A stretch of 64,000 bases of DNA, taken from NCBI RefSeq assembly GCF_003334405.1, contig NZ_QOWM01000011.1. One strand, written 5' to 3'. A program made the position numbers and the translations under genes. The stretch is from Escherichia coli. Its GTDB lineage: Bacteria > Pseudomonadota > Gammaproteobacteria > Enterobacterales > Enterobacteriaceae. Position 1 is the first letter of the stretch, and each line of letters begins with the position of its first letter. The notes beneath the pieces were generated by a model, which was not told the DNA's origin, ran no database searches, and worked only from the letters and a program-made list of their open reading frames with translations. Below, piece by piece: positions 743 to 62,854 of the stretch.

Positions 743-1855
743 TTACACGCTTTTCGACAACATTTTCCTGTGGGTGTGGATTGACATTACAATCCCGAAC
801 CCAGCCATCAGCACAATTAGCGCCGATCCTCCATAACTGACCAGTGGGAGCGGAACCCCTACAACCGGCAGAATACCGCTTACCATACCAATATTTACGA
901 AGACATAAACGAATAATATCAGCATTAAGCCGCCAGCCATGACGCGACCAAAGGTGGTTTGCGCTCTGGCGGCTATCCACAGCCCGCGCATGATCAGCAG
1001 AATGTAGAGAGCGAGCAGAATCAGAATGCCCACTAATCCCAGCTCTTCCGCCAGTACCGCGAAGATAAAGTCAGTATGGCGTTCGGGGAGAAATTCAAGC
1101 TGTGACTGAGTGCCGTGCAGCCAGCCTTTGCCGCGTAATCCGCCGGAGCCAATAGCAATTTTAGACTGAATAATGTGATAGCCCGCGCCGAGTGGGTCTG
1201 ATTCCGGGTCCAGGAGCATCATTACGCGCTGGCGCTGGTAATCATGCATCAGGAAGAACCACAGAATCGGAATGAACGCCGCTACCAGCACTACTGCGAC
1301 GCCAATCAGACGCCAGCTAAGGCCAGAGAGGAACAGTACAAACAGACCGGAAAGCGCAACGAGGATTGATGTTCCCAGGTCAGGCTGTGCAGCCACCAGC
1401 AGCGTGGGCATAAATATCAGCACCAGCGCGATGCCAGTGTTCTTCAACGATGGCGGGCAAACGTCGCGGTTGATAAAGCGCGCAACCATCAGTGGTACGG
1501 CTATTTTGGCAATTTCCGACGGCTGAAAACGAACAATACCGAGGTCCAGCCAGCGTTGAGCACCTTTAGAGATGGCACCGAAAGCATCTACCGCCACCAG
1601 CAAAATAATACAGATGATATAGAGATAGGGGGCCCAGCCTTCATAAACGCGTGGAGGAATTTGCGCCATCACCACCATGATGACCAGACCCATCGCGATT
1701 TGGCCGATTTTACGCTCCATCATGCCAATATCCTGACCGCTGGCGCTCCAGATAACCAGGGCGCTGTAAACCAGCAATGCCAGTAAGATCAGCAGCATTG
1801 TGGGATCGAGATGGACTTTATCCCAGAATGTTTTTTTATTCGGATTATCCGTCAT
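743..1855 (-). CDS. mrdB: Peptidoglycan glycosyltransferase RodA (SEDS family)
   Basis: ORF track 370 aa, multi-pass membrane protein, recognised RodA sequence and length; immediately downstream of mrdA. Confidence 0.95.
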
Positions 1856-22221: not shown

Positions 22222-22384
22222 CAGAAAAAAGAGGGTAGCAGCGTTAACTGCTACCCTCGAAGATTGTTACCCAGCGTATTGCGGTTTTCAGGCCCGATGG
22301 GGAACGACCATCAGGCGTATAGTCTGTCCGTGCTACGTAACAATCGAGAGGGCTGGAATTTCCGCCCCTGGTTCTTGTAATTAG
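22222..22384 (-). ncRNA. sroC: SroC-like sRNA from the gltI-gltJ spacer (3' end at intrinsic terminator hairpin)
   Basis: Hairpin gagggtagcag/ctgctaccctc (22231-22258) followed on the minus strand by a T6 run, just upstream of the gltJ start; location matches recalled SroC. Boundaries approximate. Confidence 0.5.
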
Positions 22385-23289
22385 TTCAGTGCCTTGTCAT
22401 TCGGTTCTTTGAACAGTGCTTTCATTTCGTCTGACAGTTCGAAATTCATGTTCAGGTTTTTCGGCGGAATTGGATTTTTGAACCACTTATCAAACCATTT
22501 TTCCGCTTCACCGGAGGTCTGCACCTGAGCGATGGTGTCATCCATCAGCTTTTTGAACTGCGGATCATCTTTACGCAACATACAACCGTAGGCCTCCTGA
22601 GACTGCGGCTTGCCGACGATTTCCCAGTTGTCTGGTTTCTTCGCTTTCGCACGTTCACCGGCCAGCAGAGCGTCATCCATCATAAAGGCAACGGCACGAC
22701 CGCTTTCCAGGGTGCGGAAAGAGTCACCGTGATCTTTGGCGCTGATGATGCGCATATTCATTTTTTGCTCTTCATTCAGTTTGTTGAGCAAAACTTCAGA
22801 GGTAGTGCCGGAAGTGACGACTACGGCTTTGTCTTTCAGGTTGGCAAAATCTTTGATATCGCCACCCTTTTTGGTCAACAGGCGCGTACCGACCACGAAA
22901 ATAGTGTCAGAGAAAGCCGCCTGTTTTTGGCGTTCGACGTTGTTGGTGGTAGAACCACATTCAAAATCGAAAGTGCCGTTTTGCAGCAGTGGAATACGGT
23001 TTTGTGAGGTAATCGGAATCAGTTTTACCTGCAAGTCCGGTTTGTTGAGTTTCTTTTTCACTGCTTCAACAATGGCGTTGGAGTAATCCTGCGAGTAACC
23101 CACCACTTTTTGCTGATTGTCGTAATAAGAGAAAGGCACTGAAGATTCACGGTGACCGACGACAATCACACCGTTTTTGGCGATTTTGTCCAGAGTACTG
23201 CCCGCTGCCGGGGCGGCGTCATCTGCCTGTGCCAGTCCTGCGGAAAGCGCCAGGGCGAGGATTGCTGTGGCAGGTTTACGTAATTGCAT
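22381..23289 (-). CDS. gltI: Glutamate/aspartate periplasmic binding protein
   Basis: ORF track 22381..23364; start placed at internal Met (MQLRKPATAILALALSAGLAQA, signal peptide) giving 302 aa. Confidence 0.9.
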   Translation of the reverse strand: MQLRKPATAILALALSAGLAQADDAAPAAGSTLDKIAKNGVIVVGHRESSVPFSYYDNQQKVVGYSQDYSNAIVEAVKKKLNKPDLQVKLIPITSQNRIPLLQNGTFDFECGSTTNNVERQKQAAFSDTIFVVGTRLLTKKGGDIKDFANLKDKAVVVTSGTTSEVLLNKLNEEQKMNMRIISAKDHGDSFRTLESGRAVAFMMDDALLAGERAKAKKPDNWEIVGKPQSQEAYGCMLRKDDPQFKKLMDDTIAQVQTSGEAEKWFDKWFKNPIPPKNLNMNFELSDEMKALFKEPNDKALN

Positions 23290-30772: not shown

Positions 30773-30847
30773 TGGCTGGGGTACGAGGATTCGAACCTCG
30801 GAATGCCGGAATCAGAATCCGGTGCCTTACCGCTTGGCGATACCCCA
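30773..30847 (-). tRNA. glnV: tRNA-Gln (anticodon CUG); glnV/glnX type
   Basis: 75 nt; revcomp TGGGGTATCGCCAAGCGGTAAGGCACCGGATTCTGATTCCGG...CCCCAGCCA; anticodon loop TTCTGAT. Only one CUG copy present, so glnV versus glnX is ambiguous. Confidence 0.93.
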
Positions 30848-30894
30848 ACAAATTGGTTTTGAATTTGCCGAACATATTCGACACATTCAGAATT

Positions 30895-30971
30895 TGGTGG
30901 CTACGACGGGATTCGAACCTGTGACCCCATCATTATGAGTGATGTGCTCTAACCAACTGAGCTACGTAGCC
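30895..30971 (-). tRNA. metU: tRNA-Met elongator (anticodon CAU)
   Basis: 77 nt; revcomp GGCTACGTAGCTCAGTTGGTTAGAGCACATCACTCATAATGATGGGGTCACAGGTTCGAATCCCGTCGTAGCCACCA. Confidence 0.93.
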
Positions 30972-30986
30972 AGATTGTTTCTTCGA

Positions 30987-31061
30987 TGGCTGGGGTACCT
31001 GGATTCGAACCAGGGAATGCCGGTATCAAAAACCGGTGCCTTACCGCTTGGCGATACCCCA
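30987..31061 (-). tRNA. glnU: tRNA-Gln (anticodon UUG); glnU/glnW type
   Basis: 75 nt; anticodon loop TTTTGAT in revcomp; only one UUG copy present, so glnU versus glnW is ambiguous. Confidence 0.93.
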
Positions 31062-31084
31062 TCCGTACAACGCTTTCTGGTGAA

Positions 31085-31169
31085 TGGTGCGGGAGGCGAG
31101 ACTTGAACTCGCACACCTTGCGGCGCCAGAACCTAAATCTGGTGCGTCTACCAATTTCGCCACTCCCGC
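31085..31169 (-). tRNA. leuW: tRNA-Leu (anticodon UAG)
   Basis: 85 nt with long variable arm; revcomp GCGGGAGTGGCGAAATTGGTAGACGCACCAGATTTAGGTTCTGG... Confidence 0.93.
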
Positions 31170-31178
31170 AAAAAAAGA

Positions 31179-31255
31179 TGGTGGCTACGACGGGATTCGA
31201 ACCTGTGACCCCATCATTATGAGTGATGTGCTCTAACCAACTGAGCTACGTAGCC
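31179..31255 (-). tRNA. metT: tRNA-Met elongator (anticodon CAU)
   Basis: 77 nt; identical in sequence to the tRNA at 30895..30971. Confidence 0.93.
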
Positions 31256-33546: not shown

Positions 33547-33646
33547 GCCGGATGCGGCGTGAACGCCTTATCCGGCCTACAAAAGCATGAAAATTCAATA
33601 TATTGCAGGAGCTGCGTAGGCCTGATAAGCGTAGCGCATCAGGCAG
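33547..33646. repeat. Composite REP-spacer-REP element (BIME/RIP-like), copy 1
   Basis: gccggatgcggcgtgaacgccttatccggcctac ... aatatattgcagg ... gtaggcctgataagcgtagcgcatcaggca; inverted orientation relative to copies at 41896 and 49386. Confidence 0.7.
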
Positions 33647-41879: not shown

Positions 41880-41895
41880 TTTTAAGTTTCGCTAT

Positions 41896-42057
41896 GCCGG
41901 ATGGGGCGTTTACGTCGCATCCGGCAAGGAACAGACAAACAGTTTCAAACGCTAAATTGCCTGATGCGCTACGCTTATCAGGCCTACATGATCTCTGCAA
42001 TATATTGAGTTTGCGTGCTTTTGTAGGCCGGATAAGGCGTTCACGCCGCATCCGGCA
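41896..42057. repeat. Composite REP-spacer-REP element (BIME/RIP-like), copy 2, with an extra leading REP
   Basis: REP units at 41896-41926, 41958-41988 and 42023-42057; central part near-identical to the element at 49386-49484. Confidence 0.7.
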
Positions 42058-42437
42058 AGAAACAGCAAACAATCCAAAACGCCGCGTTCAGCGGCGTTTT
42101 TTCTGCTTTTCTTCGCGAATTAATTCCGCTTCGCAATTTATCCATAAAATAAATTTAAAATAACAAAACATAATTAAATAAAATGTAACCGCTTTCATCT
42201 TGCTGGAATTTCACGCTTTTATTCTTCTGCAAGCCTTTCAACCGCAAACTTAAGCCTTGTAACAAAAATCATCAAAATATGTGCGGTTGCTCATGTTCTT
42301 ACATTCTGGTTACAGAAAGAGATTGATAATTCGCGTCGCGAAAAATAGTCTGTTCCTGTAGTCAGCGAGACTTTTCTCAACGCTACTTTTTTAATTTTTA
42401 TTTTTTCGCTGTTCACCTTTGGTGCAGCAATTTATAC

Positions 42438-42449
42438 GTCAAAGAGGAT
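42438..42449 (+). promoter_or_regulatory. chiP ribosome-binding region overlapping the presumed ChiX sRNA pairing site
   Basis: cgtcaaagagga immediately 5' of the chiP ATG (42456); recalled to be complementary to the ChiX seed. Not verified by computation. Confidence 0.4.
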
Positions 42450-42455
42450 TAACCC

Positions 42456-43862
42456 ATGCGTACGTTTAGTGGCAAACGTAGTACGCTGGCGCTGGCTATC
42501 GCCGGTGTTACAGCAATGTCGGGCTTTATGGCAATGCCGGAGGCTCGCGCCGAAGGATTCATCGACGATTCAACCTTAACCGGCGGTATCTATTACTGGC
42601 AGCGTGAACGCGACCGTAAAGATGTTACCGACGGCGACAAATACAAAACCAACCTTTCTCACTCCACCTGGAATGCCAACCTCGATTTTCAGTCCGGTTA
42701 TGCTGCTGATATGTTCGGCCTTGATATTGCTGCGTTTACGGCGATTGAAATGGCGGAAAACGGCGACAGCTCCCACCCGAACGAAATCGCGTTTTCAAAA
42801 AGTAATAAAGCCTATGACGAAGACTGGTCCGGCGACAAAAGCGGTATAAGCCTGTATAAAGCTGCGGCCAAATTTAAAAACGGTCCGGTTTGGGCGAGGG
42901 CAGGTTACATTCAGCCAACTGGTCAAACGCTGTTAGCGCCGCACTGGAGCTTTATGCCAGGTACTTATCAGGGGGCGGAAGCCGGGGCGAATTTTGATTA
43001 CGGCGATGCTGGTGCGTTGAGTTTCTCCTACATGTGGACCAACGAATACAAAGCGCCGTGGCATCTGGAAATGGATGAGTTTTATCAGAACGATAAAACC
43101 ACCAAAGTTGATTATCTGCACTCCTTTGGGGCGAAATACGACTTCAAAAATAACTTCGTACTGGAAGCGGCATTTGGTCAGGCGGAAGGGTATATCGATC
43201 AATATTTTGCCAAAGCCAGCTACAAATTTGATATCGCCGGTAGCCCGTTAACCACCAGCTACCAGTTCTACGGTACCCGAGATAAAGTTGACGATCGCAG
43301 CGTCAACGACCTTTATGACGGCACCGCCTGGCTGCAAGCGTTGACCTTTGGTTACCGGGCGGCTGACGTAGTGGATTTGCGCCTCGAAGGCACCTGGGTT
43401 AAGGCTGACGGTCAGCAGGGATACTTCCTGCAACGTATGACTCCAACCTACGCTTCCTCAAACGGTCGCCTGGATATCTGGTGGGATAACCGTTCTGACT
43501 TCAACGCCAACGGCGAAAAAGCGGTCTTCTTCGGTGCGATGTATGACCTGAAAAACTGGAATCTTCCAGGCTTCGCCATCGGCGCTTCCTACGTTTACGC
43601 ATGGGATGCTAAACCTGCGACCTGGCAGAGCAATCCGGATGCGTACTACGACAAAAACCGGACTATTGAAGAGTCTGCCTACAGCCTGGATGCGGTCTAT
43701 ACCATTCAGGACGGTCGCGCCAAAGGCACGATGTTCAAACTGCATTTCACCGAATACGACAACCACTCCGACATCCCAAGCTGGGGCGGTGGTTACGGCA
43801 ACATCTTCCAGGATGAGCGTGACGTGAAATTTATGGTAATCGCACCATTCACCATCTTCTGA
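42456..43862 (+). CDS. chiP: Chitoporin (outer-membrane chitooligosaccharide porin)
   Basis: ORF track 468 aa; signal peptide and C-terminal aromatic residue (beta-barrel). Confidence 0.92.
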
Positions 43863-43911: not shown

Positions 43912-44238
43912 ATGAAAAAACTGATTCTCATCGCCATAATGGCATCGGGGCTGGTAGCTTGTGCGCAATCAACCGCGCCACAGGAAGACAGTCGTCTGAA
44001 AGAGGCATACAGCGCCTGTATCAACACCGCACAAGGTTCGCCAGAAAAAATTGAAGCCTGCCAGAGCGTGTTAAACGTGCTGAAGAAAGAGAAACAACAT
44101 CAGCAGTTTGCCGACCAGGAAAGTTTACGCGTACTGGATTATCAGCAGTGTCTGCGTGCAACGCAAACCGGAAATGATCAGGCGGTGAAAGCCGATTGTG
44201 ATAAAGTCTGGCAGGAAATACGCAGTAATAACAAATAA
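43912..44238 (+). CDS. chiQ: Lipoprotein ChiQ
   Basis: ORF track 108 aa; lipobox LVAC. Confidence 0.9.
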   Translation: MKKLILIAIMASGLVACAQSTAPQEDSRLKEAYSACINTAQGSPEKIEACQSVLNVLKKEKQHQQFADQESLRVLDYQQCLRATQTGNDQAVKADCDKVWQEIRSNNK

Positions 44239-47679: not shown

Positions 47680-49320
47680 ATGGCAATCCACAATCGTGCA
47701 GGCCAACCTGCACAACAGAGTGATTTGATTAACGTCGCCCAACTGACGGCGCAATATTATGTACTGAAACCAGAAGCAGGGAATGCGGAGCACGCGGTGA
47801 AATTCGGTACTTCCGGTCACCGTGGCAGTGCAGCGCGCCACAGCTTTAACGAGCCGCACATTCTGGCGATCGCTCAGGCAATTGCTGAAGAACGTGCGAA
47901 AAACGGCATCACTGGCCCTTGCTATGTGGGTAAAGATACTCACGCCCTGTCCGAACCTGCATTCATTTCCGTTCTGGAAGTGCTGGCAGCGAACGGCGTT
48001 GATGTCATTGTGCAGGAAAACAATGGCTTCACCCCGACGCCTGCCGTTTCCAATGCCATCCTGGTTCACAATAAAAAAGGTGGCCCGCTGGCAGACGGTA
48101 TCGTGATTACACCGTCCCATAACCCGCCGGAAGATGGTGGAATCAAATACAATCCGCCAAATGGTGGCCCGGCTGATACCAACGTCACTAAAGTGGTGGA
48201 AGACAGGGCCAACGCACTGCTGGCCGATGGCCTGAAAGGCGTGAAGCGTATCTCCCTCGACGAAGCGATGGCATCCGGTCATGTGAAAGAGCAGGATCTG
48301 GTGCAGCCGTTCGTGGAAGGTCTGGCCGATATCGTTGATATGGCCGCGATTCAGAAAGCGGGCCTGACGCTGGGCGTTGATCCGCTGGGCGGTTCCGGTA
48401 TCGAATACTGGAAGCGTATTGGCGAGTATTACAACCTCAACCTGACTATCGTTAACGATCAGGTCGATCAAACCTTCCGCTTTATGCACCTTGATAAAGA
48501 CGGCGCGATCCGTATGGACTGCTCCTCCGAGTGTGCGATGGCGGGCCTGCTGGCACTGCGTGATAAGTTCGATCTGGCGTTTGCTAACGACCCGGATTAT
48601 GACCGTCACGGTATCGTCACTCCGGCAGGTTTGATGAATCCGAACCACTACCTGGCGGTGGCAATCAATTACCTGTTCCAGCATCGTCCGCAGTGGGGCA
48701 AAGATGTTGCCGTCGGTAAAACGCTGGTTTCATCTGCGATGATCGACCGTGTGGTCAACGACTTGGGCCGTAAACTGGTAGAAGTCCCGGTAGGTTTCAA
48801 ATGGTTTGTCGATGGTCTGTTCGACGGCAGCTTCGGCTTTGGCGGCGAAGAGAGTGCAGGGGCTTCCTTCCTGCGTTTCGACGGCACGCCGTGGTCCACC
48901 GACAAAGACGGCATCATCATGTGTCTGCTGGCGGCGGAAATCACCGCTGTCACCGGTAAGAACCCGCAGGAACACTACAACGAACTGGCAAAACGCTTTG
49001 GTGCGCCGAGCTACAACCGTTTGCAGGCAGCTGCGACTTCCGCACAAAAAGCGGCGCTGTCTAAGCTGTCTCCGGAAATGGTGAGCGCCAGCACCCTGGC
49101 AGGTGACCCGATCACCGCGCGCCTGACTGCTGCTCCGGGCAACGGTGCTTCTATTGGCGGTCTGAAAGTGATGACTGACAACGGCTGGTTCGCCGCGCGT
49201 CCGTCAGGCACGGAAGACGCATATAAGATCTACTGCGAAAGCTTCCTCGGTGAAGAACATCGCAAGCAGATTGAGAAAGAAGCGGTTGAGATTGTTAGCG
49301 AAGTTCTGAAAAACGCGTAA
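47680..49320 (+). CDS. pgm: Phosphoglucomutase
   Basis: ORF track 47629..49320; start placed at [13 protein letters not shown] (546 aa); phosphoserine motif region TPSHNP. Confidence 0.94.
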
Positions 49321-61180: not shown

Positions 61181-62854
61181 TCAGGAGAGATATTCCGCCA
61201 CCGGACCAAGCGCCAGGGCAGGGATAAAGGTCAGTGCGCCAACCAGCAACACGGTGCCGATTAACAGGCCAACAAACAGCGGGCCGTGCGTTGGCAGCGT
61301 GCCGGAGCTGGCGGCTTGGCTCTTTTTACTCACCAGCGAACCGGCAATTGCCATCACCGGGATAATCACCCCGAAGCGACCGACAAACATGCAGAACGCC
61401 AGTAAACAGTTCCAGAACGGAGAGTTGGCGCTTAATCCGGCAAAGGCGCTGCCGTTGTTGTTAGCGGCGGATGACACGGCGTACAGCACTTCGCTAAAAC
61501 CATGCGGGCCAGGGTTGAGCATGGCGCTACGTCCGGCGTCGGTCATCATCGCCAACGCCGCGCCCATCAGCACCAGCGTCGGGGTAACCAGAATTGCCAG
61601 TGCAGTCAGTTTCATCTCGCGTACGTCGATTTTTTTACCCAGATATTCCGGTGTACGACCAATCATCAGCCCGGCAATAAACACCGCCAGCAGGACAAAC
61701 AGCATCATGCCGTAAAGACCAGAACCGACACCGCCGAACACCACTTCACCAATTTGCATCAGCCACATCGGCACCATGCCACCGAGAGCGGTAAACGAAT
61801 CATGCATCGCAATCACCGCGCCACAGGAAGCCGCCGTCGTCACGACCGCAAACAGGCTACTGACCAGCACGCCGAAACGGCTCTCTTTACCTTCCATATT
61901 GATGCTGCTGTCCGTGCCCAGTGCCAGCAGATGAGGATTACCCTGAACTTCTGCCCACATCACCACGCCTACGCAGATGACAAAAATCACTGACATCGCC
62001 CACAGCAACATGCGCCCCTGGCGGCGATCGCCCGTCACTTCACCAAAGGCAAAGCACAGCGCCGTTGGGATCAAGAAGATCGCCAGCATCTGCACGAAGT
62101 TGGTCAGTGCGGTTGGGTTTTCAAACGGATGCGACGAGTTGGCATTAAAGAAGCCACCGCCGTTAGTACCGAGCATCTTGATCGCTTCCTGAGAAGCTAC
62201 AGGCCCCATGGGTAACAGCTGTTGCGCTCCTTCAACGGTATTCACAGCCTGATAAGGCAGAAAGTTTTGCAGCGCACCTTGTTGAATAAAAAACAGTGCA
62301 ATCAACAACGCCACAGGGACTAGCACCCATAACGTGATGCGTAGCAGATCGACCCAGGCATTCCCGAGCGTGCTCATGCTCTGGCGGGTAAACGCACGGA
62401 TGAGGGCAAAAATCACCGCAATCCCGCTGGCGGCAGAAAGAAAGTTTTGCACCGTTAAGCCCGCCATCTGGCTGAAATAGCTCAACGTGGTTTCACCGCT
62501 ATAAGATTGCCAGTTGGTATTGGTGACAAAGCTGACGGCGGTATTCAGCGCCAGATCCCACGACAGCCCTGGCAACTGCTGTGGATTAAGCGGCAGATAG
62601 TGCTGACCGAGCAACATAAAAAACAGCACCGCCAGCCCCAGCATGTTCAGGCCGAGAATGGCACAAAGATATTGCTTCCAGTTCATCTCACGGTCAGAGA
62701 CGCCAAGTGCGCGAAAAAGTACGCGCTCAACGCCCGTTGTACCGGGAAGAGGAATGTCATTAATCAGCCGCGCCAGCCCGCTGCCTAAAGGACGCGCCAG
62801 CACCATTAACACCAGTAAAAACGTGGCGATCAGTAAGAACCCTTGCGCAGCCAT
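61181..62854 (-). CDS. kdpA: K+-transporting ATPase channel subunit KdpA
   Basis: ORF track 61181..62998; start placed at [16 protein letters not shown] (557 aa); start codon overlaps the kdpF stop by 1 nt. Confidence 0.93.

Follow-up and report, generated by a model that had tools for sequence, protein, structure and literature searches.

The small RNA ChiX, also named SroB, MicM or RybC, is a trans-encoded and Hfq-dependent RNA, and in E. coli MG1655 its gene lies about 200 kb from chiP, the gene of the chitoporin. It is known that chiP is continuously repressed by ChiX as long as chitosugars are missing, that the chb mRNA induced by chitobiose base-pairs with ChiX and brings about its decay, and that chiP is also repressed at the transcriptional level by NagC (PMC4098024). 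[quoted passage not shown] Hfq speeds the annealing of ChiX to an RNA that is, letter for letter, the leader of the locus studied here from position 42358 onwards (PMC5606850). Among the bacterial examples of target mimicry, i.e. of regulation by an RNA decoy, the ChiX/chiP/chbBC circuit is widely cited.

We analysed a stretch of 64,000 nucleotides of E. coli DNA (the window), in which the genes around the site are, in order, glnS, chiP, chiQ, fur/uof and fldA. The window is K-12-like, with 3 mismatches in the 8,001 positions of this region in comparison to E. coli K-12 MG1655 (NC_000913.3), and MG1655 coordinates are obtained by adding 665,878 to those of the window. We consider it very highly probable that positions 42437-42448 are the ChiX binding site of the E. 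coli chiP (ybfM) mRNA, and none of the analyses run gave evidence that contradicts this identity. The ChiX site on chiP is already known, there is nothing novel about the window itself, and the rediscovery of the circuit adds no new knowledge, its value for the window being a correct annotation. The biology invoked by the original prediction for this locus, namely that ChiX silences the chitoporin and that a decoy induced by chitosugars relieves the silencing, agrees with the published picture (PMC4098024). Seen in this way, the site would be an operator-like RNA element that keeps the E. coli chitoporin silent until chitosugars appear.

The site upstream of chiP and its predicted duplex with ChiX

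The features at the 5' end of chiP and downstream of it are as follows.

42437-42448, + strand: ChiX target site CGTCAAAGAGGA in the chiP mRNA leader (sequence, co-fold, window ranking, conservation)
42438-42448, + strand: conserved core of the ChiX site (alignment of orthologous leaders)
42443-42448, + strand: putative chiP Shine-Dalgarno sequence AGAGGA (read from the sequence and assigned by its consensus)
42456-43862, + strand: chiP coding sequence, 468-aa chitoporin (open reading frame list; RefSeq annotation chitoporin ChiP)
43912-44238, + strand: chiQ lipoprotein gene, 3' of chiP (open reading frame list, annotation)

The 12-mer CGTCAAAGAGGA occurs once in the window, on the + strand, and no second match with up to one mismatch was found on either strand of the 64 kb; by simple arithmetic, chance alone would give about 0.008 exact copies of a 12-mer in 128 kb. 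Its context in the window is ...AATTTATACGTCAAAGAGGATTAACCCATGCGTACG... The sequence that the original prediction had named is indeed there and upstream of the gene, but it had been placed one position too far downstream, since 42438-42449 reads GTCAAAGAGGAT. Neither is it flush with the start codon as had been proposed: a 7-nt spacer (TTAACCC, 42449-42455) separates it from the ATG at 42456. The site overlaps the ribosome-binding region of the chiP/ybfM orthologue, and AGAGGA lies wholly within it, 7 nt 5' of the ATG.

The partner RNA is not encoded in the window, as had been predicted. An Rfam scan at the gathering thresholds returned sroC, five tRNAs and ES036 and no ChiX/sroB anywhere in the 64 kb, and the window holds no reverse-strand copy of the ChiX seed. 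The ChiX sequence, an 84-nt query, was taken from another E. coli genome. It is found with 100% identity, in one copy each, between ybaK and ybaP in 5,423 of 5,426 complete E. coli genomes, and judging from these genomes chiX is almost certainly present in the source genome of the window as well. The ybaK-ybaP locus is the Rfam family sroB (RF00368), which it matches with 82 bits at a gathering score of 44, and AAAUUCCUCUUUGAC is written in upper case, i.e. as highly conserved, in the sroB consensus. The ChiX printed in PMC5606850 is the same 84-nt sequence as the one we used for co-folding. The seed that the original prediction had named, UCCUCUUUGACG, corresponds exactly to nucleotides 45-56 of ChiX.

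Full-length ChiX was co-folded with the chiP leader (+1 to +30 of the open reading frame) using an energy model without Hfq, and the net gain (ddG) was calculated as the minimum free energy of the dimer minus those of the monomers. The co-fold consists of 12 out of 12 contiguous Watson-Crick pairs, ChiX U45-G56 with A42448-C42437, and there are no other intermolecular pairs; the 5' hairpin and the terminator of ChiX are retained. The site is complementary to the single-stranded seed of ChiX (UCCUCUUUGAC[G]) without interruption, and the predicted duplex buries the Shine-Dalgarno sequence of chiP. The net gain is -19.9 kcal/mol, as compared to -4.9 +/- 2.3 kcal/mol for 300 dinucleotide shuffles of the leader (best -12.4; the real site has z = -6.6) and to a mean of -3.9 +/- 2.3 kcal/mol for 3,994 sliding windows of 128 nt on both strands of the 64 kb. 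The top four of these 3,994 windows, with -17 to -21 kcal/mol, all hold the chiP site. The match of ChiX at chiP is far beyond chance. The duplex postulated by the original prediction is thus strongly favourable in its pairs and its energy, and it ranks first in the window.

The runner-up partners, 62657-62761 (+), 47733-47805 (-) and 1090-1164 (-), were rejected as co-fold artefacts: they are long and discontinuous, and they unzip the hairpins of ChiX. Similarly, a plain duplex prediction with full-length ChiX gave an interaction of 70 nt, which is meaningless as this method disregards intramolecular structure.

A few other RNA elements were seen along the way. In the window there is a sroC RNA at 22223-22385 on the - strand (Rfam, 175 bits), a cluster of five tRNA genes at 30776-31255 on the - strand, and an ES036 (CssrF) match at 33581-33623 on the + strand whose score, 41.1, is just above the gathering score of 37.6. 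SroC is a sponge of GcvB that is excised from the gltIJKL mRNA (PMC10.1101/2021.04.25.441314), i.e. the same window holds another mRNA-derived sRNA sponge besides the ChiZ RNA discussed below. In E. coli O157, close to chiX and flanked by ybaQ and copA (positions 2882-2959 of locus L001), both strands match the REP-derived naRNA4 (CssrE).

How well the site and the ChiX seed are conserved

Within E. coli, 5,400 of the 5,425 genomes in which the region is present have an exact copy of a 31-nt stretch comprising the site and the ATG, and the frequent variant seen with a longer query concerns codon 3 of chiP, outside the site. Beyond the species, we scanned species representatives, which gave 80 chiP loci from about 20 genera of Enterobacteriaceae with ChiP proteins that are 83-99% identical. 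The 11-mer GTCAAAGAGGA is kept in 74 of these 80 loci, and the spacing from the site and its Shine-Dalgarno sequence to the ATG is 6-8 nt in all 80. When 75 distinct leaders are aligned, GTCAAAGAGGA is the most conserved non-coding block, with 90-100% per column as opposed to 20-70% in the flanks. GTCAAA, the half that is not part of the Shine-Dalgarno sequence, is conserved as well as the Shine-Dalgarno half, i.e. the conservation of this best-kept block of the untranslated region (74/80 species) goes beyond what a Shine-Dalgarno sequence requires. In the same alignment the NagC operator at 42325-42347, to which we return below, has 60-90% identity per column, which is a moderate conservation.

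The first base of the site, C42437, behaves differently from the rest; it is kept in only about 60% of the leaders and is A or T in 25 of the 80 species. For comparison, ChiX loci of other genomes were reached via the neighbouring gene ybaP, which gave eight loci representing seven distinct YbaP sequences. The seed AAAUUCCUCUUUGACGGGCC is identical in all eight wherever it is covered (L211 ends at a contig edge, so that only CUCUUUGACGGGCC is visible there), and the 5' hairpin of ChiX is variable among the fetched loci. We found no covariation between position 1 of the site and nucleotide 56 of ChiX: G56 is kept in the two genera checked, Pseudocitrobacter and Kluyvera, where the site starts with A. 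Note that the ChiX and chiP loci of Pseudocitrobacter vendiensis come from the same assembly and those of Kluyvera from different species. There is no support from covariation over the 11-bp core because both partners are invariant there. As judged from these alignments, the conserved interaction is an 11-bp one and the pair C42437-G56 is a lineage-specific bonus of Escherichia-type sequences. The pairing over 12 bases that was originally proposed is therefore complete in the window; outside Escherichia-, Salmonella- and Klebsiella-type sequences 11 of the 12 pairs are conserved.

Five loci deviate from this pattern (L048, L049, L059, L066 and L057). They belong to Kosakonia sacchari, K. pseudosacchari, K. 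oryziphila, K. arachidis and to a metagenome-assembled genome (MAG) labelled 'Proteobacteria bacterium', the ChiP of which shares 98% identity with those of the four Kosakonia species. The site in these genomes, found 19-8 nt 5' of the match start at 2501 in the fetched loci, is CGTC[C/T]AGAAGGA (CGTCCAGAAGGA or CGTCTAGAAGGA), which differs from CGTCAAAGAGGA by three substitutions in the otherwise invariant core. With canonical ChiX, the Kosakonia-type leaders reach a predicted ddG of -7.6 to -10.9 kcal/mol only, as compared to a median of -18.0 over all loci. We tentatively put forward, as a possibility that we consider rather unlikely, that in this clade either the ChiX seed has co-evolved (the predicted form being UCCUUYUGGACG) or chiP has escaped silencing by ChiX. 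The C/T polymorphism would be neutral if its partner is a G, so it fits the compensated seed UCCUUYUGGACG and is no proof of it. A metagenome scan with AAATTCCTTYTGGAC gave at least 120 stretches, and among the matches listed none was ChiX-like (no terminator, no similarity). The list of YbaP homologues, which goes down to about 67% identity, had no Kosakonia or Enterobacter among the matches listed, seven contig look-ups via YbaP neighbours gave the canonical seed each time, and a literature search for Kosakonia together with ChiX found nothing relevant. If the seed has co-evolved, three compensatory changes would have arisen naturally in the seed of an sRNA with multiple targets, which would be rare; if silencing has been lost, chiP would be free of ChiX in the plant-associated Kosakonia. 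A site and a seed that are near-invariant over about 20 genera, with one clade departing, may provide a handle on the evolution of sRNA-target pairs, and we point to this clade for that reason.

Two further variants were observed in single genomes. A Leclercia MAG (L050) has one central substitution, CGTCAATGAGGA, in the site 19-8 nt 5' of the chiP start at 2440, which is either a real variant or an error of the MAG. In E. coli strain E3 from poultry (L213, NZ_CM130010.1) chiP carries an IS1A insertion a few codons after its start, from about window position 42468 onwards, so that the porin gene is disrupted and the ChiX site and the ChiZ region are intact.

Silencing, decoys and alternative readings of the site

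The elements that surround the site in the chiP leader and within the gene are the following.

42323-42351, + strand: probable sigma-70 promoter of chiP, -35 TTGATA, 17-nt spacer, -10 TAGTCT (read by eye; transcript start at 42358)
42325-42347, + strand: NagC operator GATAATTCGCGTCGCGAAAAATA, 'ybfM proximal' (identical to the site in PMC3098098 Table 1)
42358-42455, + strand: chiP 5' untranslated region, annotated as the ncRNA chiZ (b4808), a ChiX sponge (NC_000913.3 708236-708333)
42386-42407, + strand: U/A-rich tract CTTTTTTAATTTTTATTTTTTC, candidate Hfq rim-binding element of a Class II sRNA target (sequence; putative role)
42746, + strand: peak of a bicyclomycin-sensitive Rho termination region within chiP (MG1655 708624; PMC7815308 Supplementary file 2)

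The proposed course of silencing can be outlined on this map. Single-stranded UCCUCUUUGACG of ChiX (nt 45-56) would pair over 12 bp with CGUCAAAGAGGA, which spans -19 to -8 of chiP; the Shine-Dalgarno sequence would be covered, and therefore the 30S subunit could not bind and no chitoporin would be made. The untranslated chiP RNA would then be open to Rho-dependent termination inside the gene, which would lower chiQ. Polarity on chiQ was reportedly described by Bossi et al. in 2012, and chiQ is expected to be affected by it. With chitosugars present, repression by NagC would be lifted and ChbR would induce the chb operon, whose chbB-chbC spacer mimic would pair with ChiX, lead to ChiX decay and set chiP free. 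In addition, a short 5' fragment of chiP that bears the site (ChiZ) could titrate ChiX. The Rho region at MG1655 708624 has a Rho score of 4.4 and a significance of 1e-11, and a 'chiPQ' mRNA was probed in the same study (PMC7815308). This region is about 290 nt into chiP, a position that is consistent with Rho reinforcing the silencing by ChiX.

The NagC operator would add transcriptional control to the same chitosugar switch. GATAATTCGCGTCGCGAAAAATA is located between the putative -35 and -10 elements and overlaps the chiP promoter. Among the calls of a generic promoter scan there was none for the chiP promoter; our reading of it by eye is consistent with the 5' end of chiZ annotated at 42358. 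With NagC operator, sRNA target, ChiZ sponge and Rho-dependent termination, chiP may be viewed as a regulatory hub.

Further upstream, at 42105-42140 and about 220 nt 5' of the chiP start, there are two direct copies, CTTCGCGAATTA and CTTCGCAATTTA, 18 nt apart, that resemble half of a NagC-type box (cf. CTTAATTATCTTCGCGAATTATT of the distal chbB site); we speculate that they might be a distal operator for looping. The glnS-chiP spacer also has two REP-like palindromic units at 41893-42072 (direct repeats of 42 nt with 86% identity), each of which is built as an inverted repeat around GCCGGATG...CATCCGGC, and 3' of them, at 42076-42100, a perfect 10-bp hairpin followed by a T-run that resembles a glnS terminator.

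It has to be considered whether the site is chiefly the active part of ChiZ, i.e. of an abundant 5' fragment that titrates and destabilises ChiX, with the translational repression of chiP coming second. The annotation of chiZ over 42358-42455 fits such a reading, as does the Term-seq 3' end just past the site, at MG1655 708334 (window 42456), which is listed with the same sequence in PMC7815308; the transcript from the chiP start to this 3' end is assigned to the window through the identity with MG1655. A ChiZ fragment of about 90 nt accumulates upon deletion of chiX in an Hfq- and Rho-dependent manner, and overexpression of ChiZ lowers ChiX and raises chiP mRNA and chiP-lacZ only when chiX is present (PMC7815308). 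However, the two roles are compatible and the same study regards ChiZ as following from the target site. Deletion of chiX strongly de-represses chiP-derived RNA (PMC7815308), and the overlap with the Shine-Dalgarno sequence at a fixed spacing in 80 of 80 species would be needless for a pure sponge. We therefore regard a mainly sponge-like site as improbable, and since ChiZ carries the ChiX site and sponges ChiX, the 12-mer is rather both the target and the active part of the sponge. The original prediction was right about the mRNA target, and its description of the site lacked the ChiZ sponge role and Rho termination.

A different ligand, such as Hfq binding directly, another sRNA or a protein, could in principle be what the block is kept for, in which case the pairing with ChiX would be incidental. 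This idea draws on the long U/A tract near the site in the leader and on another system in which Hfq can repress translation by direct binding to a ribosome-binding site (PMC5006887). We consider it very improbable, as no other Rfam family maps at the site, the conserved block is the complement of the ChiX seed base for base with coinciding edges, and the deletion of ChiX alone de-represses chiP (PMC7815308).

Least likely of all, to the point of being hardly credible, is a mere coincidence, i.e. a strong Shine-Dalgarno sequence preceded by neutral bases whose complementarity to ChiX has no regulatory effect: ribosome binding alone would explain AGAGGA, which is half of the 12-mer, and 24 of 100 shuffles of the 64 kb gave at least one match when one mismatch was allowed, but chance would give the exact 12-mer only about 0.008 times in the window, GTCAAA is kept just as well as the Shine-Dalgarno half in about 20 genera between two variable flanks and the seed is equally invariant, the decoy has CGUCAAAGAG without being a ribosome-binding site, and the compensatory-mutation experiments cited in PMC7815308 contradict it.

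Comparison with the known ChiX partners and with other porin-silencing sRNAs

We return to the reading of 42437-42448 as the ChiX site of chiP and compare it to the known systems. In as much as the ChiX-chiP system of E. coli and Salmonella (RF00368) is concerned, the locus is identical to it, and its leader is the chiP RNA that was used in vitro in the published work. The 12-mer is also the ChiX-pairing part of ChiZ (Adams et al. 2021, PMC7815308).

The similarities to the chbBC decoy, or 'trap mRNA', are only partial. In E. coli the chbB-chbC spacer has CGUCAAAGAG and, after it, 7 bases that are complementary to ChiX nt 38-44, with a ddG of -17.2. The 10-mer CGUCAAAGAG is common to the decoy and the chiP site and the same ChiX bases are paired. 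Unlike the chiP site, the decoy lies outside the window (at about 1.821 Mb in MG1655), it is not a ribosome-binding site, and it has 7 extra pairs (ChiX nt 38-44) after a 2-nt bulge. The outcome is different too, since pairing with the decoy leads to decay of ChiX as opposed to silencing of a target (PMC4098024).

The pairs MicA-ompA and MicF-ompF resemble ChiX-chiP in that a trans-encoded Hfq sRNA pairs over or beside the Shine-Dalgarno sequence of an mRNA for an outer-membrane protein, and MicA-ompA is discussed alongside ChiX-chiP in PMC7815308. There are two differences between ChiX and the other porin-silencing sRNAs. Firstly, ChiX belongs to the Class II sRNAs: it engages Hfq at the proximal and distal faces, and the ChiX target does so at the rim. 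Secondly, ChiX is constitutive, and it is controlled by RNA decoys and not by its own transcription.
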